Positions 13,072 to 40,900 are shown, counted from the whole stretch's first letter. The stretch: 61,147 nt of DNA, filler included, from Porpidia crustulata (GCA_964255105.1; 3 parts of 3 records of this genome joined end to end with filler, not necessarily neighbours in it), one strand, 5' to 3'. Numbers and translations are program-made. Notes: generated by a model not told the origin, from the sequence alone.

Positions 13072-14211
13072 ATGGACCGATTTGCGACCGCAATGGACCA
13101 AGAGAAAGCTCTCCCTGGACTACGACATGAACCATTCAATCCAATATTCCCGTCATTGCAGAACGTATCACAAGAGTCCGAACGTCCCAACTTTCTTGAA
13201 AACCATCCATATCCGCTTGGGAGAGACGTTCCCAGTGACGAAGCGTTGAGGAAGATACGAACTGCCAACTCCATCACCATCAGTCCAGGTAAGGCCGCTG
13301 AAACGATTACTCGGCGTACATAATATGTCAGTTAACAGAGGTGGCCAGAGTTATTCGAGAAAATCTATCTGAGTCCACAGAATGCGGTTAAGGGCGACCT
13401 TCGATCAACGTTTGGCAATCCTACCCCGTTGGCCCTGCTTGGCTATCTCCTTAGTCTAAGCCCGCTCTCTTGCGAGTTAATGGGTTGGAGAGGAGCGGGA
13501 GGAGCTGGTATAGCTACGACTGGTGCTTATTATTTCATCGTAAGTTTGATTGTGCCGGTCCATGGCAGCAAACATTGGCTAACGTGGTTTCCGTTCCTAG
13601 GGAGGCGTTCTAATGTTACTCGGTGGTATCTTAGAATTCTTCCTTGGAAATACCTTCTCTTTCGTCGTCTTCTGCTCTTTCGGCGGCTTCTGGCTCACCC
13701 TCGGAAGCACCTTAACCCCAGCCTTCAATGCCTATGGCGCATACGCGCCGCCCGACCCGTCCACGACTACTGCTGGCATTGATAGCGCAGGGTTTCACGC
13801 TAGCTACGGCTTCTTCCTCCTCTTCATGGGCCTCCTCTGCTTCATGTACCTCATCTGCGCAATGCGGACCAACATTGTTTTTGTAACCATCTTTCTTGGT
13901 CTATTTTTGACTTTTGTTGTTCTGACGGGCTCTTACTGGCAACTTGCTCTAGGCCATCATCAAACGGCAGCAAGGCTGCAAATAGTATGTCCTCGCTACG
14001 ATAATAATTTAATGCTCGGCAGCTAATATGATCTTTCTGTAAGGCCGCAGGGGCGTTTGGATTCATGGCCTGCATGGCTGGATGGTGGATTTTTTTCGCG
14101 CAGATGCTCGCCTCAGTCGACTTCCCAATCCAAATCCCAGTTGGGGATATCAGCCATATCATCAAAGGCGGGAGCACAAGAATCCAGGAAAGGGAACAAT
14201 TCCGAGCTTAG
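13072..14211 (+). CDS. GPR1/FUN34/YaaH (ATO/AlcS-like) membrane transporter, 4 exons; start codon uncertain
   Basis: TANSITISP|ELFEKIYLSP...FGNPTPLALLGY, GILEFFLGNTFSFVVFCSFGGFWL, ICAMRTNIVF, ASVDFPIQIPVGDISH. Confidence 0.85.
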
Positions 14212-15292
14212 GCGCTTCTTCACAATCTTGGAAAGACTGTAGCTACAAAGTCGGTCATATTTGGAACACGAGCGAGGGTATATTATGCATCAAGGCAGGG
14301 CCAGAATTTAGAGATATTGGGAAAGCGTGTGACTCGGCCTGGCAAAGGGCGAAATTGGTAATTTGGCGGGTATGGGTGTAAAAGCATGAACTTGTATCAT
14401 GGACTCCGTGATTGCATAGGCTTAACCATAAGAGACCTATCGAAGAGCGCTGTTAAAAATACCACCACCGGCATCTGTCTTGAAATGTTTCACTCTCTGT
14501 CTTGGGTAAGCAACCTTCAACTTCGACAACGGCCTACTCCCTTGTAGATGCACTTTTCTTAGCAAGCCATATACACCGTGGCTACACACATCTATGCCAA
14601 TAAGCATGCCTTCAAGCGATTTTCAGAAATCGTTCGAACGTATCGTCCTCGGGGGCCAGGTCCAGAAGCCCAGATTCCGGGATTTCAATTTATGAGCTGC
14701 TTGAGATGAAACGGCGCTTGTTACCTACCTCGCTGTAGTGCCAGAGCAGCGATTCGTAGCTCTGGCCATCGGCGGCTATCGAGATTTGGCCTGTAACAGT
14801 GCCCATCGGGAGACAAACCACCTATATCTTTGCTAGTGATCCTTTACTCGTGTAAGGAAAAGACGGGATGCTGGTTTGTTCTTGCACCCATGCGTATCGA
14901 GATAAGGCTTAGCTTACAATAGTCGACAGCGTATTGATTTTGAATGTCGAAATAGCGTAGAATTAATATGGTATGTAGAGCTGACGTTGATCAACTCTTC
15001 TGTAACAACTTAAAAATCTCTTAATTAATCCAGCGGAAATCCAGCGGTGACGCTCTCGATTGTGGAGTGAATGGTGATACTCGAATAGACGATATCTTCA
15101 AGGTCCTGTTAAGGGCCATAATATCCCATAATTTTAGTAGGCAAGCGACGTCATCCTTTGAGCACCAGCGCTATGCATTCCGCCTCCCCTCCCGCACAGA
15201 CGCCCAGTCCATCTATGAAATCAACTTGTCATGATTACTAGCAAATATGTATACGATCTTTGTGGGCTAACAGATAGACTGTAGCAGTGTTC

Positions 15293-20393: not shown

Positions 20394-20493
20394 NNNNNNN
20401 NNNNNNNNNNNNNNNNNNNNNNNNNNNNNNNNNNNNNTTAATTAATTAANNNNNNNNNNNNNNNNNNNNNNNNNNNNNNNNNNNNNNNNNNNN
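20394..20493. other. Artificial contig-joining spacer (44 N + TTAATTAATTAA + 44 N)
   Basis: Exactly 100 nt containing a six-frame stop linker; an identical structure occurs at 40801-40900. Confidence 0.97.
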
Positions 20494-26343: not shown

Positions 26344-26842
26344 GCTAAGTATATACAATCGAATTTGGTTCAAAAAGCATAGGTCGGCAGTTTTCTGCAT
26401 CTGCGGCCGCTCTACCGAAATTGTAATCTATTTCGGACCCTGCATTAGCGTGCTATACCGGCATTAAGATCGTAACCCCGTGTGCCCTGTGTGCCGTCAA
26501 TGTGGGCTACTTCAACAACTTTAGATATCACGCAAGTTCTCCGTGATACCTCAGTGATTTTCAGTAGACTGAAGCACTTGCCCTTAGTATCTTCAACGCG
26601 CGCAGACTGCTCGCGCTCACAAGGTCCCCGGTACTGTCTGTTTTCTGACGGCCGGACTCTCCAATCTGTCTAGGCATGACGTATGAAAATTTGATCAACC
26701 CCACCAGAACCTGCCAACTATCCTCCCTCGTCTATGTCCCTCTCGTCCGTATCTTGTAAAATATCCGAGCATATAAATAAGCAGTCGTACTTGAGCCAAT
26801 TATCAAATATCTAGCATTTGTGTACAAAATAGCTTAACCATC

Positions 26843-28726
26843 ATGCCGCTCAATGCTAGAGCTATCTTTCCCTCCTTAGATCCCGAATTCGTCACTTTTG
26901 CGAGTCGCAGGAGCGTTGTTCACAGTATCAATGGTATAGTCGCATGTACACAGCCACTTGCGGCACAAGCGGGTCAAAGAATTCTTCGGTCTGGTGGAAA
27001 TGCTGCTGATGCAGCGGTTGCTGTTGCAGCAGCACTGAATATGACAGAGCCATCCTCCACCGGTATTGGGGGAGATATATTCTGCCTCTTCTACAAGGCA
27101 GAAACAAAGAAGGTCCATGCCTTGAATGGATCTGGTCGAACGTCTCATAACACTACATTAGTAGGAACCAGGTCTGATCTTGGGCTCAAAGATGGAGAGC
27201 CTGGTGTTATACCCATGTCAAGTATACACTCAGTAACTACACCAGGTGCGGCAGCTGGATGGGTGGATACTGTAGAGAAGTTCGGTAGTGGAAAGCTTTC
27301 ACTGGAGCAGATCTTAACACCAGCCATTGAGCTTGGGGAAGAAGGCTTTCCCGTTTCGGAGTTGGCCTCAACATTCGTTAAGAGTCCCGATGAGTTTGAT
27401 TATGCACTGATGACTGATGATAGATAGTGGAAAGCTAGCGAGGAGCTCATACGTGGTGCATCGCCTAATTTTGGAGAGATGCTAAAGTCAGACAGCTCAG
27501 CAAAAGATGGTAAAAGAGCTCCTGAACCGGGAGAAATATTTAAGAATCCCACTCTCGCCAACACCTTCAGACTCTTAGCAAAGCAGGGCAAGAAAGGCTT
27601 TTATGAAGGTCAAGTAGCGGAAGCCTTGATTGAAGTAGTCAAGGACCTTGGAGGCCGGTTGGACATGCATGATCTGAAGAGTCATTGCGAGTTTGGTGAT
27701 GAAGAGGTGGAGGCCATCAAACTTCGGTTTAATGGCCAAAACATCGGAAAATTCCGAAGCAAAGAAGTCAACGAGAAACCTGGTCAAAGTACTTTGGAAG
27801 AGGGTGTGGATGTCTGGGAACACCCTCCCAATGGCCAAGGCATTGTTGCATTAATGGCCCTAGGGATACTGGAGGAATTGGAGAAAACAGGCAAACTGAG
27901 AACCTTTGAGGAGAATGAACATAACTGTGCAGAGTATCTGCATGCAGTCATCGAGGCACTTCGCATTGCGTTCGCAGATGCCAGTTGGTATGTGGCGGAT
28001 CCGCATGTCGTCAAAGTCCCTACCAAGGAGATGATCTCACGGTCCTATCTTGCTGAGCGTGCCAAAATCTTTGACCCCAAGAGAGCCTGCGGTGTTCTCG
28101 ACCACGGTTCACCAGCCCACAATCATTGTGATACGGTCTACTTTGCAGTAACCGATAAACACGGGAATGGAATGTCTTTCATCAACAGCAACTATGGCGG
28201 ATTTGGAACTTGTGTTATACCCAAAGGCTGTGGCTTTACCTTGCAAAACCGTGGCGCCAACTTCTCGCTCCAGGAGGGCCATCCAAACGTGATCGCTCCG
28301 AAGAAGAGGCCTTACCACACCATCATTCCCGCCATGATTACCAATTCAAGCGATCAGAGCCTACACTCGGTGTACGGTGTAATGGGTGGCTTCATGCAGC
28401 CACAAGGCCACGTCCAAGTCCTCCTTAACATGTTGACTTTCAAGTACAACCCACAAGCCGCTTTGGACGCGCCCAGAATATGCCTCGGTGCTGGTACCCC
28501 AGAGATGGGCAAAGTTCTCGACCGTACCGTATATCTAGAAGAAGGTATCAGCGAAGCGGTAGCGAGTGACCTGAAGGAATTGGGGCACGAGGTGGAGATT
28601 GTCACAGGTTTCAAACGAGGACTCTTCGGCCGGGGCCAAGTAATTAGATGTCACATGGAGGACGGGAAACATATCTACAGCGGTGGTAGTGATCCCCGAG
28701 GTGACGGGGCTGCATTACCTGCGTGA
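26843..28726 (+). CDS. Gamma-glutamyltranspeptidase family (T3, Ntn hydrolase), no evident signal anchor, 2 exons
   Basis: GGNAADAAVAVAAAL, EPSSTGIGGD, PPNGQG, autocleavage site CD|TVYF, SNYGGFG, LQNRG, KRPYHTIIP, GVMGGFMQPQGH, SDPRGDG; intron ~27377-27427. Confidence 0.93.
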
Positions 28727-29450
28727 GTGTATTGCTTCGTCCCATTTGGAAAATACCAAGAAAGCCCTGCGTTAGAGACTGGACGGATTCTAGATTATGT
28801 ATAGGCAATATAGCATTAACTGATGACCCCAAACATCTGCCACACATACAACTGGTGCTAAGAATCATTTCCAAATGTAGATATTAAACTTTCCAAACCA
28901 TCCATCAATCTTGGTGCCGAGTATTCGCGGAGGTTTCTTGCCCCCTTTATTGTACCTTGATCGTATCCTAATCATTTCGTTGCTGCGAGCAGAAACCCCA
29001 AAATCACATCTTCAGATTAGATACAGTCAACATCACACGCTAGAAAACCGTTCAAAGTCGCAGAATCGGGTATTTCATATATTGACATATCTGAACATTG
29101 AGTTTGATATAAATTCCAGCATCGGATTACGAAGATGTATCTGCAGATTTGCACATCAGATCGTAATCGCACTGCTGCGAGCCCTCAATTCTGGCAGGCT
29201 GATGACACTGCCTCAAGCATGGACGTCAACTGCCATTGAGCCTTTGTGAGCCTCCATCATCGCTGTGCAATTCCGACTCCTTGCGACTTAATAGCAAGAT
29301 CGTTGTCATGCGTGATTTACGAGACAAATTTACAGAAGCGGGCTGTAGCGGCTTCCCCATCCGCCGTGATAAACGCAGACCCTTCTATCTCGACCGTTGT
29401 CGTTCCCGGGCTTATCAATCTGGCGCGAGGCGAAAATTCTCTGCACCACC

Positions 29451-31106
29451 AAGGGCGTTGAAGAAAGGGCTCGGGTGTGCGGCCACAAAGTTGCGACACC
29501 GCCCATCACGCCGGCTTCATCGAGACTTTCGCGCGGCGAGAGGCACAGACGAGAGCCACGAAGCAGTCTCAGCGCCTCAACGCAGATGGATATGCCGTGC
29601 TTCGTCAGTAGGTCGGCCAGGTGCACTTTATCGTATTAGACTATGCCGATTGCACTAAGGTCAACATCACGGGTATCCTGGAGAAATGACAGCTGTAATG
29701 TTGCTTCAACACTGGAATGCTCGGCGACTGTGAACCGGGTGCCTGAAAAGCGGCAATGACAAACATCGACTGAAAGGCCCCGATGGAAAAGATTTGACTG
29801 GGGAACGCTTATGAAAAAGGTCGACCGTACCGTGTCAATGAGCTTCCTCTACTGCATCTGCGACAATTACAGGATCAAATCCTGGGGAACGTCGTGGGAA
29901 TGCTTCTGTCAGTCTAAACAATTGTACGCAAGTCGAGTTCCACTGGCAGAACGCCTATCTCGACGAGCCAACCGAGGACGCACTCATCGGCATGCTCACA
30001 AACATCAACGTCATGCGGGACCCGCATGCCACCAAGGACATAGTGGCCCACGAGATATGGGGCAGCCTAGAGCCGGACCCGCAGATCGTCGCGCTGGAAC
30101 AAGAGTGCGAGCAGCCCAAGGCTGGCAGGTTTAAGTATCGAGACACTGAGAGCGCTGAGCAGATCATGATGCTCGGGAAGCAGATCCGAGCAATAAGGGC
30201 GCAGCGGATGAAGAACAACCGGCGACAACACCGAGAGTACTACTTCATCAACCGACCCACTTGAGATATTGAGCAGCAGGACAGTAGCAGTGACGACGAA
30301 AAGTACGAGGATCCGGAGCACGAGTTCAACGAGCTTGAGATCGACCAAGACATTCCCGAGCGTGCGGATCTCGGAAGGCTGCTCCGTCGGCAACCGGAGA
30401 ACATGAGCTTCGACGAGCTGTAAGAACGCCGCGTTTAGGGAGGAGAATGCATAGTGGCCCTTTTAATCAAGCAGGAGATAGTCAGACGCGGCGTCATTAC
30501 ACAGAGGGAGTCCAAAGAAAGGACGTTGAAGGTTAAGGCCCCCCAATCGACCCGGAGTCCCAGCATTGACATATCCACCATTCCCGCCGCTAGTATCATG
30601 GCCCCATCCAAGACTCGTTCCCCTGCCGCATGTAAGAGAGATAGCGTCCCTGGTACATCGGCGACAAGTGGCTCTCGTACAAGGAGCGAACGTTCTAGTA
30701 CTGTCGCACGACGGTTAGGAACGACCATTTCGACAGCCAGCATTTGCAGCACTCGGACTAACTGCCTGCCCAGGCCCAGCTGGCCTGCCAGCATCCTAAA
30801 TGCAGGAAGATAGGTTGCAAGTTTGGGAGCATGGATGAGTATAGGAATCACACGCATAGGATGCACTATGTCAGGCTCCGGCCCGCTGAACAAGTCGCGT
30901 CCAGGGTACGAAAGACATCTAGAGCTGCTGGCAAGAAGATGGAGGAGCTCAGCCAAATTGTGTGGCAGGTTGAGTCGCTTGTGCCTGATGACAGCCCATG
31001 GGAAGGGATGGAGAAGATGAAGACGTGGCAAGAGCACCAGCATCGGGTCTCTTGGCAGGCGAACGGGAACATGTTCGCTAGAAACATGATGTCTTGGGAA
31101 GGGTAA
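29451..31106 (+). pseudogene. DUF3435 ('FluG domain'-annotated) tyrosine-recombinase-like Starship captain pseudogene with internal deletion
   Basis: Collinear fragments: HHAGFIETFARREAQ...DYADCTKVNITGILEK*; YRIKSWGTSWECFCQSKQLYAS; QNAYLDEPTEDALIGMLTNINVMRDPHATKD...PDPQIVALEQ...HREYYFINRPT*DIEQQ...IPERADL; IGDKWLSYKERTF*YCR...NDHFDSQH...CQHPKC...YRNHTHRMH. Many stops and frameshifts. Confidence 0.75.
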
Positions 31107-31781
31107 GGAGACACGATGATACCTTGGCAAGCGTAGGATACTTCCTCGCCCAGTATCTCAGAGTTAGAAATGAGCGTCTGGACCGGACACGAGCAGTCCG
31201 CGATATCTGCAGCTGCGTAGATACTCTTGATGTCAATCTTGGCTGAACAAAGTATAGCTATCTGCACATGATACATGTCTTCTGAATCCTGTGTCTGGTG
31301 TCTTGATGGGACTTGATTCTGAAAAGTTGTGATCAAGCACCAAGATCTACCCTGAATCCTGAATCCTGAATTCTTGCGTCGTCATCATCGCCTCTCTACA
31401 TGGCTCGCATCATCAGCCCTACAGCGAACAAGGGACAGCTGAAGAACGGAGTAGTCGGAGGAGTGATCCAGATGCCAATTGTGAAATGTGTAAGCTCATT
31501 TTTTGCCGTTGTGATCCGAAGCCGGTGGTGGGTAGCAGAATAAGTCATCCACCCACACAGATAGACACAGACACAAACACCCACACAGCCTTGTGTAGAT
31601 AACCAAATGAGTACAGCGATGAACGGTCGTGTCATTCCACAGAGACCAAGGAAGGTCACCAGTTCGCAACACTTACAGATGGATCTCCAGCTCAAGCATG
31701 ATAATGTGGCACTGTTCAACGAGCAGTATCTTTTCCTAGCAAGATTGTGATATTACTAATCAAGCTATAGTTGATACCAAC

Positions 31782-33461
31782 TCATGTTATCCCCTTGGCC
31801 ATAGCCAGCAATCTTCTTGATTTGCGCTGAACATGAGATGTTGGCTGCCGAGCTGGGGCGCGCAATCTCTGGCTCGGGCCTTTGCTTCCGGTCTGAGGTG
31901 CTGGGCTGGTGTTTTTCTGTTCGTCAACCAACCGGCGACCTCGACGAGACTGCTGCTCGACCGTCCGGCATGTCGTCGTTGCCAAACTGATAGATGTCGT
32001 GGCTTTGCTGGGGCTTTTCGGCCTCCCTCGAGCTGATTGTTGAGCTATGCCTCCAGAAGTGTCCCCTCGCCTCGCTCTTTTAGACCGACGTTCAACTGGA
32101 ATGTCCTTATCCTCGACTCGTCTTCTTTTCTTGCTCAATCCCGCCGTGATTTGGTCATTTGTCGCAGCTGTACGTTTCTGCGTGTCCTCAGTCTCGATCG
32201 ATTGCACTTGTTCTAGAACCCATTGCGTCAGGATGTTTTGGCGGCCAGCGGCCTCCTCCGCTCGTCGGTAAGGCCCAGCCTCCCGGATAAATTCACTGAT
32301 CTTCTGTCGTAGGTCCTCCGATTCAGCTTTTGTTGTAGCCAGCTGCTGCTCAAAACTAAGAGCGTCCAGGGAGCTGCCATTCGAGCAAGATCATGGCACC
32401 CTTCCCAGCGCAGAAGGTTGCAGCGAATCGAGACGCTGAAGATTATCCCAGGCATCGCGGTATCGTGATTCCAAGGCCTTCATCGAAGCGGCATGTCGAT
32501 CTGCCTGCCAGTACTCGAAGTTGAGATACTCAATCCATGTTGTCCAGTCTCCTTATTGGCGTGGATTGTCTTCTAGTTGAAATGGCCGAGTGAAGTTGTG
32601 CAATGCAAGGCGTCTCTTGACCGCCTCTTTATACGCTGGAAATCCTGCACTGCTGGGGACCTCGCGGAGCTTCGGTTTCATCGTCCACTGTCGTCTGAGT
32701 GTCTGTTCGAATGTGGAATGAGATACCATCGCCTGTGACTCCGACAGCGTATATCTACGCTTCTTCGCCTCAAAAAAGGCATGAAACCCGTCAGCTTCAG
32801 CCGCAGTGCTCCGATTATCAATCTGCCATTTGCGAAACTCCCACCACCGATCCACTTGTCTCGAGAAAACTATCGGCATTCCACCATCTCGGTTCCTGGA
32901 CTCTGGATCATCGAGCCACGGTAGGAATTTTTCATAGCTTCGCTTAGGCTCCCTCGAAGCTTGCGAAAGAACCTCGATTAACACCACGGGCCTGCCGCCG
33001 TTCTGAACGAGCTCTTTATAGCATGCCGACTCAATGTCTTCGCTCTCAGACGGCGGAGTGCACGTGGGGGACTGAGACCATCCTGGAGGCCGCTGGAGGG
33101 ATAGAACTTCTGAGGAGCCGTCCTGCCCGCCAGCTACGCTGTCCAATCGTTCAAGGAGTCTGCTGATATCAACAGAACAAGACTTATTTGCACTCTCAAC
33201 TTGTCGCGCTGCGGCTCCGCCAAGGAGCGAAAAGTTAGCGACAGTACAAAATAAAGACTAACAGACGTCTCATTACTTCAGTCTTTCCACAAGCTCATCT
33301 CGCTGGTGCCTCACCAGCATTTCCAAGCCGGAGGCACTTGAAATATCGAATCCGCCCTCATCGCGGGCGCTGTGCTCCATATACTGAACGAGCAGCACCT
33401 CATCGATGGTGAGGAGTTCCTCAGCAGTGAAGACAGGCGCCTCATCCTCATTGACGGGCAT
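31782..33461 (-). pseudogene. Decayed accessory gene of a fungal hypothetical family (often labelled 'ankyrin 2,3/unc44'; no ankyrin repeats visible)
   Basis: YKELVQNGGRP, FSRQVDRWWEFRKWQIDNR, GFPAYKEAVKRRLALHNFTRPFQLEDNPRQ*GDWTTWIEYLNFEYW; in-frame TAA at 32553-32555 and further disruptions downstream. Confidence 0.6.
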
Positions 33462-33550
33462 GGGCTGTATTGCGTGTGAACTCACCAGGAAAGGTTTGTG
33501 TTGTTCGGTGGTTTGATGCAACGCCAAAACTTAGTTGTAGGGTTCGCCTC

Positions 33551-33853
33551 CACGCGGGTGAAGAAAAAAACGAGACCGAGCAATGCGGCCCCCCCCGGGG
33601 AACCCCACCAAATCTGTTAGCAAATTCCACAATCATCATAATTCCACAGTCAATTCCACAATGCCACCATGCCTAAAGCAATTCATAATAAACACCTAGA
33701 TATGCCTTGAAGGATCAAAGTGCAGAGAGCCATTGAATTCCTCTGCGCAAAGGTTTAAACGTTAAAAATGAAGATGTTTTTCAATATTTTCAAATTCCTA
33801 GGTCTCCCGGGGGGCGCCGCATTGCTCGGTCTCGTTTTTTTTCCACCCGCGTG
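33551..33853 (+). mobile_element. Non-autonomous DNA transposon (303 bp) with ~53-bp TIRs and a Tc1/IS630-like transposase N-terminal remnant
   Basis: TIR CACGCGGGTG...AAAAAAACGAGACCGAGCAATGCGGC(C/G)CCCCCCGGG at both ends. Internal ATG at 33669 reads MPKAIHNKHLDMP*RIKVQRAIEFLCAK/GLNVKNEDVFQYFQIPR. Flanks are GCCTC and CCCTC. Confidence 0.85.
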
Positions 33854-33888
33854 CCCTCGTAGCTCTGTCTAGGATCAGCTTACTTGTA

Positions 33889-33968
33889 CACACCCCTAGT
33901 TCGGCCACATAACTAGGGCTACAGTCACGTGATCGACTTGAAGCATGTATGGCCGAACTAGGGGTGTG
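33889..33968. mobile_element. Tiny TA-flanked MITE (80 bp), Tc1/mariner-type
   Basis: TA|CACACCCCTAGTTCGGCCA ... TGGCCGAACTAGGGGTGTG|TA; perfect 19-bp TIR. Confidence 0.75.
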
Positions 33969-34204
33969 TACGGGACCGTTCTTGGTTAAGCGAAAACCTG
34001 CAGCGGAGGTAATCGACTCAGTTTACAATGACTAAATGATGCTATATCTGGAGCGACCTACCTTCGCAGAATGGAGAAATGAGAGTTTATTCATGGAACG
34101 GTTTGACCGATAGTTGCTCATTTATTCGACAACTTGCTTCAGGCTACTTGTATATGACTATGTACAGGGTACTAGAATATGTACAATCCCCCCCGCCCTC
34201 TTTA

Positions 34205-36331
34205 CTAAATCGGCATTCCAGACTCGAGGCCAAGAGTGTTACCAGCTGTGGCTTGGTTCACATCGAGCATAAAGGATGGGAGCGCCAGATGGATGGGGCT
34301 GGAATCGTTCAGCTTTGCCCTCTTCCGCGCTGGGCTGAGTGACTGCCCAGTCTGCCCTGATTCATTGTTCTTCAAAACCCCAGTCCCTTGGTTCTCGTCG
34401 TCGACCAGAGCGCCGCCGAGAAAGTGGCGGATGCGCGTAGAAAGATCCAAGCCTTCGAGTCTAGCGCCATCCTGGTGAACTTCGGTTTCGATTATGGGTG
34501 CTGCGCCCTCGTGACTTGGAGACCCAGTCTGTCTGTTGTCCCATAGCTCGCCGTTCACGATGGTCGCGACGGAACGATTGGCAGTCTCCTCGACAGTCCG
34601 CGGCTGCTGAGTCTCGGGCGTGGGAGCAAATGAACGCCTTGACGTCTCGTCGTCGTAGTCGGTCGAATTGAGGATAGATTCTATCAAGGAAGAGCCACGA
34701 TAGCTAAGCTCCCCGATCAGTGAATCAACCGAATCTGATACAACTGATCGGACTGGTGCCTGCCGCTGAGACAGTCTGCCAAATAACTGTAGCGCCTCGT
34801 TGTAGCAGTAAGATGCTGGTCGCCGGTTCTGCGGCTCTATGTGGAGCATGGTGTCCAGAAAAAACGGGATGAGCTCGTTGTGTCGCTTCGGCTGATCCTT
34901 GAAATACTGCAATACCGCCTTGTTCCACACCGTAGTGCTCTTCGCATACGAATCAAGGTATTGTGGGAGACCGCATGCCCTTTCACCGAAGACCAGAGCG
35001 AGAGACCAGATGTCGACGCCTACGGTATAGCGTGCAGCATCTTGAGAACCTACTTTGGCGTATATTTCCGGCGCCGCGTACTTCAACGTGCCGCAAAATG
35101 TTTTCAGGTAGCTTGCGTGTTTGGCTAAGCCAAAGTCCGCAAACTTAACGCGGACGGACCTGTCGGGCGAAAGGAAACACAGAATTTTTTCAGGCTTGAT
35201 GTCACGGTGTACAATCGGTGGCTGGTGTGTATGCATATCCGTCAGGGCGGAGAGCAACTGACAGATATATTGTACCTCATCGAGTGTCGATGCGGCCGGG
35301 TGGCTGTCGAGAGAGCCTCCATTGGCGTACTCAAAGGACAACTGAGGCCAGGGAGTAAACTTGGCACCCAGAAACGTCACGATATGCTCCTAGATTCCGC
35401 AGCTGTTAGCACGAGTACTGAAGTCATGTAGTATCGTCCGCCCCGGCTCCATACTGACATATTGTATGCATGACATGATATCAGCTTCCTTTCTCCACTG
35501 CTCGATGGTGTGGCAACCCTGTCCCCTGAAATTCTTCAAGGGCTCCTTGAGTGCGTATTGTTCTCCAGTAGTAACATTGAAGACGTACGTCACAACACCA
35601 TAGTTCCCCTGGCCTAGTTTCTTCTTCCAGAGAATTGGGCCGGAAGGCTTCGAAGATGGGGTGCTTATCCCGGTCGGTGTAGGGAGCTCTGTTTCTGGAA
35701 GGCTCCGGACCTTAAGAAGTGCAAATAGATCTGTCGTGTCCGCTGTCCCCTGTCGAAACTTGGTTACATTGTCGATGTATTGCTGTGAATCGATGTTTTG
35801 AGGAGGCCCGACGAGTCTGAACTGAAGATCTCCGACAAATTCGAGTATTGGCGTCTTATCCTTAAGGAAGTCGTGACCACCAACGATCCAGTCAACCTTG
35901 TATCCACGCTCTGCCACCTCTCTGTCGTAGGTAACTCTAGTTCCGCACAGGGAGCCCAAGTCTCTGACGACCAAGCGATTCTTCTTGTTAAACGTCAGAG
36001 CCGCGTGGTACCGACTGATACCCGGCCTTTTAGGCAAGATGATGTCGGCATCTGGGGCCCATCCGATCACGACACCGTAACTAGTCTTGGCTCCATCGCT
36101 GAATTTCAGTCCAATGCAGGGGCTGTCTTCCAGGCCATCGTGCTCTTCTGGCTGTTCGGTAGCTTCCCGGGCGTCATGGCTACGCGTATCGCTGGTTTGG
36201 AGCACGAACTCGTGGCGTTGAGGCGGTATGCACCTTGAACTCTTCTGTGGCATGAAGACCGCAAATAATGCGTCAGCCTGGCCTCGGCATTCGTTTGCGT
36301 ACAAGTAGGCATAGACATCTGGGTCTGCCAT
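34205..36331 (-). CDS. FHA-domain Ser/Thr protein kinase-like protein, 2 exons, with catalytic-loop Asn replaced by Lys
   Basis: FHA-like VIGWAPDADIIL...GISRYH...VRDLGSLCGTRV; kinase LGQGNYGVV, ALKE, HRDIKPEK, DFG, FCGTLKYAAPE, DIWSL; GT-AG intron 35390-35458 joins the two ORFs in frame. Confidence 0.85.
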
Positions 36332-37220
36332 CTCGAGTAGATATATGCAGGTGTTGATGAAGGCAATGAGAAAATGAGACAGGTGAGAGAGACGGAGCGA
36401 ATATCAACCCCAGGTACGGGCACACACTTCCATCCATCTAAATCATCCCCAGACAGCGAATCACTGACTATTATGAGCAGGTATGCAATCCTGAAGACGT
36501 CAGGGGGCTGGGCGCCACTGCATCCGACCTAAGCAGGCTCCAGCCTCATGCAGTGCGTGAGGGAGGATCGCACACTATAAGCACTGCATCTTTCATCGAT
36601 AATTCAGGATAAGGTCCTAGCATTCTATTGCTTCATGGTTCTGATGTAGGAGCCTGACCAAAAAGCTTTATGTTTGGACAAAGATAGTAGCCTTGAGAGC
36701 TCAACTTTTGGATCCTTCAGGGAGAGGCACCTTGGCCGATTCGGGTTTCTTGTTGGCTGAAGATTCCTGGAAGGGTTGCGCTTAGAAGATACAGTTGGCT
36801 GAGAGATAATGCATGTTCCTGAATCCTTGTTTCAAATGCTCCAATAGAATACATCATGTGATGCTACACTACGCAGCTGTCTGACTCGATCATGGTGGGC
36901 TTAGCCGCTCGACAAGCACTTCCAACAATAGAAGCAGCGGTTGTTGGCCAGTAAAGGGTGATCAACTCACGTTGACCTTTCTCTTCCCCTCCCCGTCCCT
37001 TTCCCGTACCTGGTTCCTCGACCATCGCGCAAGCGTCAGTCGAGATGCGCGCATCCTTGTAGTCGTAGACTTTACGTTGCCACGTTGCCACGTCGCCAAC
37101 ACTGCATCGTATCAACTCCACGTTCATGATGCGATAGTCTGAGAACTGCGCGAGGACTTCACGAGCTGCAATCCAGAGCAGCCGAACACTATCGTTTATC
37201 AGTGTGTTTGAAGAGGGCCA

Positions 37221-37310
37221 CTCAGGCTAGTTTTTAATCTTCGGACACAGAAGTGAGGTTTCAGGCCTAAAATCAATTTTTTGTGTCCAAAGATTAAAAA
37301 TTGGCCTGAG
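37221..37310. mobile_element. Degenerate ~90-bp MITE with ~32-bp imperfect TIRs
   Basis: Left end CTCAGGCTAGTTTTTAATCTTCGGACACAGAA versus reverse complement of right end CTCAGGCCAATTTTTAATCTTTGGACACAAAA; flanks CA and TA. Confidence 0.65.
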
Positions 37311-37787
37311 TAAATCTTGGGAGTGTCAAGTCCCTACACTAGTCCGTCTCACAGTACCTAATTTGATAGTAAACTATCGTGCTTGCCACTTCGAAAGGGG
37401 GACGTTTCGTGAGCAGTGAGATCATTGCTATCTGAGTACTCCTAGTCACCCCTCAACCGGTCATCGCACCTAGGGTTAGGGCTCAGTATACTCCTTAGCG
37501 TACGGTGACCGATTGAGGGGCAATCAAGCTGTGCTCGAAGTGTGCGCGCCTAATTAATCCCTGCTGCGACCTGGCATCTTTCAATCGCGCTTCACGTCTC
37601 CCTACGAGCCCAATTAGGTAGCCACTTTATATACGCTTGCCCAACGGTATGGCAGCAAATTTTAAACAAACTACCATATGTACCATATGACACAAATCTT
37701 CGTACTCCACTGAAGAATGGGCATTTGCTCCTAAAACTCTCAGGTTTATCAACGCTCTTACCTGGAAGCCCCTCCGTTGCTGCAACC

Positions 37788-39123
37788 ATGTCCGAAACCC
37801 TCCACAACGCTCCCATAGTCCTTGATAATGGTAGTGGGACCATAAGAGCTGGCTTTGCGGGAGAAGACTTGCCGAAATGCTACTTCCCTTCATTCGTTGG
37901 AAGGCCTAAGCATCTACGGGTTTTAGCTGGAGCTTTAGAAGGAGATGTCTTTATAGGACAGAAGGCTCAAGATATAAGAGGACTATTAAAGATACGATAC
38001 CCACTGGAACACGGTATAGTCACGGATTGGGATGATATGGAAAGAATTTGGCAATTTGTGTATACCGAGGAGCTAAAAACTCTAAGTGAAGAGGTATGAT
38101 TGGATGGTCGAAAATCTTCAGCGTGAAATCTTGCGTTCCATTATTGAGTTTAACTAACGGATATTCGCTGATCTGACAGCATCCAGTGCTGCTCACCGAA
38201 CCTCCCCTGAACCCACGTACCAACCGAGATACCGCGGCTCAGATGCTCTTCGAGACGTTTAACGTACCTGCTCTATATACCTCAATTCAAGCCGTCCTCT
38301 CTCTATATGCTTCAGGGCGGACGACTGGAGTGGTCATGGATGCCGGCGATGGGGTATCACATGCCGTTCCGGTCTATGAAGGGTTTGCAATGTCGAATAG
38401 TATTCGAAGAATAGATGTTGCTGGTAGAGATGTCACAGAACATATGCAATTGTTATTCAGGAAAAGCGGATATGTGTTTCACACAAGTGCGGAGAAGGAA
38501 GTAGTGAGAATGATCAAAGAGAAGACCGGATTTGTGGCAGCGGATTTCAAAAAAGAAGAGAGAGAATGGAGCCGAGTTGGGGCGTCATTAGATGGAAAGG
38601 TGGTGGAATATACTCTACCTGATGGCAAGAAAATGAAGGTACTTTTGTATTGTGTTCCCTATGTTGGTATGTGCTGAAACTATGCAGATTGGGCCGGAAA
38701 GGTATCGAGCGCCTGAAATATTGTTTGATCCGGAAATCATAGGGTTGGAGTATCCCGGAGTTCACCAGATGGTGGTTGATGCCATCAATCGAGCCGACAT
38801 GGATCTTCGGAAGTCACTCTTTGGCAACATTGTGCTTTCAGGTGGATCGACATTGTGCAAAGGCTTCGGCGACAGACTATTACACGAGGTACAACGACTG
38901 GCTGTCAAAGACATGCGAATCAAGATATTTGCACCTCCAGAAAGGAAATATAGCACATGGATTGGCGGCAGTATTCTCGCAGGTCTCAGTACATTTCGAA
39001 AGGTTTGTCAATATGCAAAGTTCCAACCAACGCCACAATGCTGATGATCGTTCATGGCAGATGTGGGTAAACATTGACGACTGGCATGAGAACCCTGATA
39101 TCATACATACCAAGTTCGCATAA
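37788..39123 (+). CDS. ARP1: Actin-related protein 1 (centractin, dynactin filament), 4 exons
   Basis: [87 protein letters not shown]. Confidence 0.95.
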
Positions 39124-40800: not shown

Positions 40801-40900
40801 NNNNNNNNNNNNNNNNNNNNNNNNNNNNNNNNNNNNNNNNNNNNTTAATTAATTAANNNNNNNNNNNNNNNNNNNNNNNNNNNNNNNNNNNNNNNNNNNN
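40801..40900. other. Artificial contig-joining spacer (44 N + TTAATTAATTAA + 44 N)
   Basis: Same 100-nt structure as 20394-20493. Confidence 0.97.

Follow-up and report, generated by a model that had tools for sequence, protein, structure and literature searches.

Analysis of a 61,147-nucleotide stretch of DNA from Porpidia crustulata (GCA_964255105.1), hereafter the window, revealed an accessory island amid housekeeping genes, lying between a gamma-glutamyltranspeptidase gene (GGT) and an ARP1-like actin-family gene. The island holds three genes in different states of preservation: a dead captain gene, encoding a DUF3435 tyrosine recombinase of the kind found in the Starship transposons of fungi; a pseudogene of an uncharacterised family, here called the partner; and an intact gene for a Ser/Thr kinase with a forkhead-associated (FHA) domain. 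We judge the chances to be about even that this block, at about 28.9-37.2 kb, is what an insertion of Starship type left behind long ago, a derelict. The block can no longer move, since its recombinase is gone, its ends are not recognisable and it exists only once. That the kinase and partner genes, together the cassette, were cargo of the captain's element is inferred and unproven.

A dead captain gene with an internal deletion

The captain was recognised from an open reading frame (ORF) at 29842-30264 on the plus strand, which matched the Pfam profile PF11917 (DUF3435) with an E value of 5.7e-5 and 22.7 bits, below the gathering score of 25.8, over profile positions 239-354 of 418 only. A word-based protein search with this ORF gave no match, but exhaustive phmmer comparison with 1.84 billion representatives did find relatives, giving 89 matches at E<=1e-3, of which 38 reach E<=1e-10. 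PF11917 scored above its cut-off in all 16 of the relatives tested, which were drawn from the 89. Together with tblastn alignments of full-length relatives along the region (Table 1), these matches bear out the captain-like pseudogene on the plus strand that a preliminary description of this DNA had reported. By sequence comparison, the relic is a pseudogene of a Starship-type DUF3435 recombinase.

The preliminary description called the captain a remnant, which it is, although both its N- and C-terminal parts are present, joined over an internal deletion. Residues 27-122 and 116-164 of the relative P0034 align by tblastn with 29498-29785 (49% identity) and 29793-29939 (73%), respectively, and P0225, a Xanthoria calcicola protein of 964 aa, aligns in pieces on either side of the deletion (Table 1). 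About 275-324 codons of the relatives are gone (P0034 residues 165-439; P0225 residues 178-501). The deletion took out the region that corresponds, in relatives, to roughly the initial 238 positions of PF11917; in P0030, for example, PF11917 positions 15-416 correspond to residues 189-629, and counterparts in the window exist only for residues 62-134 and 456-765. When the sequences were read by eye, a conserved RRGAAN...MRHD...AYIN stretch of the relatives was found to sit just before the start of the C-terminal part that survives in the window, a stretch that we take to hold catalytic residues. In total, the captain shows 13 in-frame stops over 542 aligned codons and two frameshifts, and the gene is dead. 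Repeat-induced point mutation (RIP) was considered as the source of these stops and rejected because the indices are normal: TpA/ApT is 0.62 and (CpA+TpG)/(ApC+GpT) is 1.29 in the relic, much like the remaining window.

The C-terminal part of the relic is 51% identical to P0016 over 223 aa and 80% identical to P0018 over 65 aa in tblastn alignments, and 63% identical to P0017 over 199 aa. The lichen fungi Xanthoria aureola and X. calcicola are represented in the 90% cluster of P0016, and Icmadophila ericetorum in that of P0018. P0034, a 744-aa protein of Cryptococcus depauperatus, shows 44-73% identity to the relic segment by segment and shares a 90% cluster with ODN97795.1 (P0237), also from C. 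depauperatus. ODN97795.1 is entered as a 'tyr' gene of fam01 in supplement tables S3/S4 of the starfish study, and recombinase family 1 is named Phoenix in its Table 1 (PMC11162782, available part). The relic is thus probably Phoenix-like (family 1), an assignment made by proxy through the cluster of ODN97795.1. The closest full-length relatives include DUF3435 proteins recorded in two basidiomycetes (P0034/P0237, and P0017, whose record is labelled Marasmius fiardii), a group in which the available part of the same study describes Starship recombinases as scarce. These records could reflect either cross-phylum transfer or contamination.

An intact kinase gene beside a decayed partner

The FHA kinase gene named in the preliminary description is present and intact. 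Its product of about 685 aa matches the Pfam families FHA (6.6e-8) and Pkinase (1e-23), with the HRD, DFG and APE motifs visible by eye in the translation, and is 49% identical over 627 residues to a Trichoderma FHA kinase of 643 aa. The two exons contain no stop in 685 codons, stops being confined to the intron, which is 69 nt long, begins with GT, ends with AG and contains a CTAAC branch-site motif. The best solved relatives are Rad53, CaMK1, DCLK1 and Chk2, none of the PDB matches being stronger than E 4e-14. A literature search for an FHA kinase as Starship cargo found no paper.

The preliminary description placed two accessory genes on the minus strand; both are there, but the second, the partner, is a pseudogene with two in-frame stops. 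Fourteen relatives were found, the best being 73%, 64% and 67% identical, and tblastn with P0001 and P0004 is colinear through both stops (P0001, 67% over 459 positions). The in-frame TAA aligns with a glutamine directly before the nearly invariant T-W-x-E-Y-L motif of the family. This family is uncharacterised and found in Ascomycota, and some of its records carry the label 'Ankyrin 2,3/unc44', which was also used in the preliminary description. We regard the label as a misnomer, as a Pfam scan detects no ankyrin domain. The partner matches no Pfam family and has no PDB sequence match at E<=1. An AlphaFold2 model of low confidence (mean predicted local distance difference test score, pLDDT, 46.7) is all-helical with a disordered basic tail. 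A literature search on 'unc44' in fungi returned nothing relevant, as judged by title and abstract.

Order of decay and the favoured explanation

The three genes differ sharply in their stops, with 13 in 542 codons of the captain, two in 491 of the partner and none in 685 of the kinase. At the captain's stop rate, 11.8 stops would be expected in the partner (Poisson P for two or fewer about 6e-4) and 16.4 in the kinase (P for none about 7e-8). At the partner's stop rate, a kinase with none is unremarkable (P about 0.06). Because the counts differ so strongly, the captain probably died long before the partner, and the kinase was either kept by selection or arrived later.

The position and orientation of the captain fit a Starship, in that it follows directly on GGT and points toward the cassette, although the 5' end of an element was not located. 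Starships are laid out with the captain at the 5' end and cargo after it, according to the available part of PMC11162782. The derelict that we favour would have had a Phoenix-like DUF3435 recombinase as its 5' gene, reading inward from the GGT side, with the co-directional FHA kinase and helical partner as cargo to its right. Most of the element would since have been deleted and the kinase retained by selection. The partner would have been lost much later than the captain, perhaps aided by the insertion of two elements resembling miniature inverted-repeat transposable elements (MITEs) in its promoter region. The preliminary description offered a compact or a collapsed element, and it is the collapsed one that we favour.

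A more far-reaching scenario, which we put forward as doubtful, is that a Phoenix-type Starship brought the FHA kinase and its helical, basic-tailed partner into an interval between housekeeping genes of an ascomycete whose captain relatives are mostly from lichen fungi. The cassette would then function as a unit and travel as Starship cargo across distant fungal classes, and the kinase would have been domesticated after vehicle and partner died.

Copy number and the GGT locus in relatives

One sequencing run, X1, was found to contain this DNA and probably comes from the source sample; no RNA run was listed as containing it. In X1, read depth over 29.2-37.0 kb was 9.84, compared to 10.8 and 9.56 in the flanks, and no other contig matched the block at >=80% identity. 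This depth, that of a single contig, and the absence of a further match at this threshold indicate that the block is single-copy in this run. Among the Logan contigs of X1, one ends at 28878 and the next starts at 28854, about 130-150 bp past the GGT stop. The window shows no repeat at this break, and the nearby 25-mer 28863-28887 is unique. Here the graph may branch where the island begins on its left side, but the break could equally be meaningless.

The GGT ORF (P0248) belongs to a 90% cluster of 26 members, and the 14 relatives listed are 87-89% identical. For five listed GGT relatives the contigs are 78-855 kb long, and none of these matches in size the contigs of the 120 listed kinase or 14 partner relatives, a comparison that covers 15 of the 26 cluster members, takes the longest contig per protein, assumes GGT orthology and uses contig size alone. 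Since the kinase is only 5.5 kb from GGT, a cassette beside GGT would be expected to show on such contigs. These data suggest that the nearest sampled relatives have no cassette next to GGT, which argues that it is not an old resident of the locus.

The cassette in other fungi

Comparison with two metagenome loci, L002 and L004, revealed a homologue of the kinase gene followed by one of the partner on the same strand, with order, orientation and kinase intron position as in the window. The similarity between the window and these loci is confined to the two cassette genes. P0001, which at 73% is the nearest relative of the partner, and P0105, which at 67% is the nearest of the kinase, appear to share one Logan contig of 16,855 bp, as judged from equal contig size. 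By the same token P0009 and P0117 probably form a second cassette on one contig of 6,724 bp. Equal contig size is a fair proxy for a shared contig, as all four proteins looked up from the middle piece of the window gave 20307. Among the matches listed, kinase relatives reach at most 67% identity (120 listed) and partner relatives at most 73%, and the named relatives of both genes are patchy, occurring in Dothideomycetes and Hypocreales at 31-49% identity.

Around the L004 cassette, apart from the two exon ORFs of the kinase, only one of the 33 other ORFs of at least 100 aa has a Pfam match, a DUF6594 gene at 13685-14356 on the minus strand. This suggests that the L004 neighbourhood is also an accessory, gene-poor region.

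Competing explanations

Several observations weigh against derivation of the whole block from one Starship. Within 8-10 kb on either side of the L002 and L004 cassettes, tblastn with four captains (E 1e-5) found no DUF3435 match, and no Starship auxiliary family was found over the same distance. None of the 16 captain clusters looked up, out of 89 matches, shares a contig with a close relative of the cassette. The recurrent unit is accordingly one of two genes, kinase and partner, and the three-gene module proposed in the preliminary description did not recur in either set. In the block itself, Pfam detected none of the Starship auxiliary families (DUF3723, PLP, NLR, FRE) among the ORFs, families that are typical and not obligatory. 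The frequency of G+C at third codon positions (GC3) is 0.52 in the partner, which is host-like and unlike the captain (0.66-0.72); the kinase is at 0.57-0.61 and the neighbour genes at 0.38-0.61, with one outlier at 0.72. The values of the captain and the kinase, set against those of the neighbours, speak for an island.

The ends of an element likewise escaped detection. The border zones 28727-29450 and 36340-37400 have no match of >=10 nt in common, whether direct or inverted (mean of 1.06 in shuffled sequence), no repeat family in the window brackets the block, and no 5S rDNA or tRNA target site is present. Direct repeats of 4-6 bp are not recognisable without an empty site. Runs X2 and X3, compared at 80% likeness, yielded only short GGT and ARP1 coding pieces on different contigs and are too distant for an empty-site alignment. 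Finally, the very different decay rates of captain and cassette would fit separate arrivals as well.

A side observation concerns a 131,850-bp contig that probably carries both the captain relative P0016 and a kinase paralogue, P0155, only 34% identical to the island kinase. This is a weak hint that the P0016 captain clade may carry along kinases of the same broad kind.

The best-surviving alternative, to which we assign a serious but clearly less than even prospect, is that the two parts of the block have separate histories, a captain relic (from a Starship or a solo DUF3435 copy) having landed beside a kinase-partner cassette that was already in place or came by another route and was never its cargo. 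The cassette is self-contained in L002 and L004 and probably also on the 16,855-bp (P0001/P0105) and 6,724-bp (P0009/P0117) contigs, and the captain differs from its neighbours both in GC3, relative to the partner, and in being far more decayed than the cassette. In addition, most predicted Starship recombinases are described in the available part of PMC11162782 as lacking a defined element, many of them perhaps being pseudogenes. Nevertheless, separate arrival needs two independent insertions, or one together with lineage-specific retention, in one short interval, and from a single element one would expect just such a captain, reading toward the cassette. The lack of the cassette on the relatives' long GGT contigs also tells against a cassette that was waiting at this locus.

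We consider it unlikely that the kinase and partner are vertical residents, ancestral here and lost in the sampled relatives, with the DUF3435 fragment as unrelated transposon debris. The host-like GC3 of the partner, the intact kinase with an intron position in common with its L004 homologue, and the heavy decay of the captain, which implies an old locus, would all agree with such a history. The distribution of the cassette does not: its named relatives are patchy and no closer than 31-49%, and the listed ones reach at most 73% although GGT relatives reach 87-89%, and none of the listed relatives of kinase or partner lies on the five long GGT contigs.

The compact 'mini-Starship' of about 7-8 kb, mobile as captain, partner and kinase, draws on the arrangement only (captain first and inward, then two genes) and is very improbable, given that the smallest Starship described in the available part of PMC11162782 is 15,020 bp, that a candidate of 17.9 kb with nothing in it but a tyrR was classed as a false positive in the available part of PMC13486527, that the three-gene module was not found elsewhere (16 captain clusters; L002/L004), and that the block is single-copy in X1 at >=80%, with no ends found and a dead captain.

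The starfish set contains Starships of 15,020-511,117 bp (PMC11162782, available part), whereas the accessory block within the interval is about 8.5 kb and, because the GGT-ARP1 interval is only about 9 kb, at most 8.6 kb, below the smallest of them. The DUF3435 captain is there only as a pseudogene, and an intact captain is lacking.

The surrounding locus, spacers and inverted repeats

The interval from the GGT stop (28726) to the start of ARP1 (about 37788) agrees with the gap of about 9 kb between housekeeping genes given in the preliminary description. GGT consists of two ORFs in the same frame with an intron between them that contains a stop. The other genes of the window are housekeeping genes as well: aconitase, BRO1/ALIX, DnaJ, mitochondrial RF1, Whi5, isocitrate dehydrogenase, Sec5, RGS, ankyrin and NUDIX. 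The DNA is fungal, and proteins resembling its Sec5 come mostly from Ascomycota. The window is made of three pieces, recorded as separate contigs of 20,393, 20,307 and 20,247 bp; the two joins, 20394-20493 and 40801-40900, are spacers with 12 letters between two runs of 44 N. GGT, the block and ARP1 all lie inside the middle piece, and linkage across the N spacers is not to be assumed. None of the 46 spacer ORFs scanned, including those of both border zones, had a Pfam match at E<=0.01.

Table 1. Positions of the island genes, their parts, the flanking genes and the inverted-repeat elements in the window
Feature	Position	Strand	Details
Gamma-glutamyltranspeptidase (GGT), left flank	26795..28726	+	Pfam PF01019, 1.4e-34 and 1.6e-89
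Left border zone	28727..29497		GGT 3' region and 5' end of any mobile element; boundary not located
Captain pseudogene (DUF3435 tyrosine recombinase)	29498-31133	+	tblastn with full-length relatives; three frames, four colinear pieces
Captain, N-terminal part	29498..29939	+	5 in-frame stops, one frameshift near 29790
Captain, deletion junction	29929..29939	+	N- and C-terminal high-scoring segment pairs abut or overlap here
Captain, C-terminal part	29932..31133	+	8 in-frame stops, frameshift near 30600
P0225 residues 30-125	29501-29788		frame 2, tblastn
P0225 residues 118-177	29766-29939		frame 3, tblastn
P0225 residues 178-501			no counterpart in window, tblastn
P0225 residues 502-720	29932-30585		frame 1, tblastn
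P0225 residues 738-951	30612-31133		frame 3, tblastn
Partner pseudogene	33461-31782	-	in-frame TAA 32553-32555, TGA 32391-32393; intron after first exon, about 33275-33215, boundaries approximate
MITE-like element, 303 bp	33551-33853		terminal inverted repeats of about 55 nt; kinase-partner spacer
Hairpin element, 86 bp	33886-33971		perfect 22-nt arms; kinase-partner spacer
FHA and Ser/Thr kinase gene	34205..36331	-	exon 1 36331-35459, intron 35458-35390, exon 2 35389-34205 including stop; about 685 aa
Right border zone	36332..37219		kinase promoter region and sequence of unknown origin; boundary not located
Palindromic MITE-like element, 92 bp	37220-37311		inverted repeat
ARP1-like actin-family gene, right flank	37788..39044	+	three exon ORFs; Pfam PF00022, 4.8e-26, 1.3e-39, 5e-39

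The three inverted-repeat elements correspond to the MITEs of the preliminary description, which were said to be nested; the 303-bp and 86-bp elements instead lie side by side, 32 bp apart. No further copy of either was found within the window, and X1 depth was slightly raised in the bin that holds the 303-bp element (13.7 at 33384-33907, compared to 9.84). The kinase stop and the partner start are 747 bp apart, or about 360 bp minus both elements, and the corresponding distance in L004 is roughly 420-560 bp. The 92-bp palindrome had an X1 depth of 46.8, compared to about 10, and matches at least five other X1 contigs, indicating many copies in the source genome. Another short stretch, near 37448-37483, is likewise multi-copy, and several contigs have loose ends there. 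A CA-rich, microsatellite-like tract (cacccacacagatagacacagacacaaacaccc...) at 31540-31590 falls within the 0.65 kb that separate the end of the captain relic from that of the partner gene.

Comparison with known systems

The island kinase resembles FHA kinases of the Rad53/Chk2 type (CAMK group) in its architecture of an N-terminal FHA domain and a Ser/Thr kinase domain. Unlike them, it is an accessory paralogue that has diverged, its C-terminal tail is long and conserved, and its gene is closely linked to that of a helical, uncharacterised partner; no evidence for a checkpoint role was found. The FHA kinase and its partner form a recurrent, uncharacterised two-gene unit in Ascomycota, whose patchy distribution might reflect carriage by Starships.

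With the Phoenix-family recombinases, the relic shares 44-73% identity by segment to P0034, and further close relatives fall into clusters that contain Xanthoria and Icmadophila proteins. It differs from them in the deletion of the presumed catalytic region, and its family is known by proxy only.

Decay is common among Starship recombinase genes, and elements that have degraded around one useful gene are known, so the relic is in itself ordinary. Since degraded Starships that keep a single useful gene are in print (PMC13486527, available part), the novelty here would be that of one new example. Those described there with surviving cargo are Tangerine in Xanthoria calcicola and Horizon, which carries ToxA. 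The block resembles Tangerine, Horizon and Wallaby, the last with a pseudogenised captain, in its stop-ridden DUF3435 captain, its lost mobility and its intact passenger beside decayed sequence, as far as the available parts of PMC11162782 and PMC13486527 describe them. In contrast to these derelict Starships, the block has no RIP signature, no large repeat-rich tracts and no defined ends or empty site; what remains is only about 8.5 kb long, and the link between captain and passenger is inferential. If it is of the same kind, the block offers a clean example of how far erosion can go, reduced to 8.5 kb without RIP and with the passenger kinase still intact.

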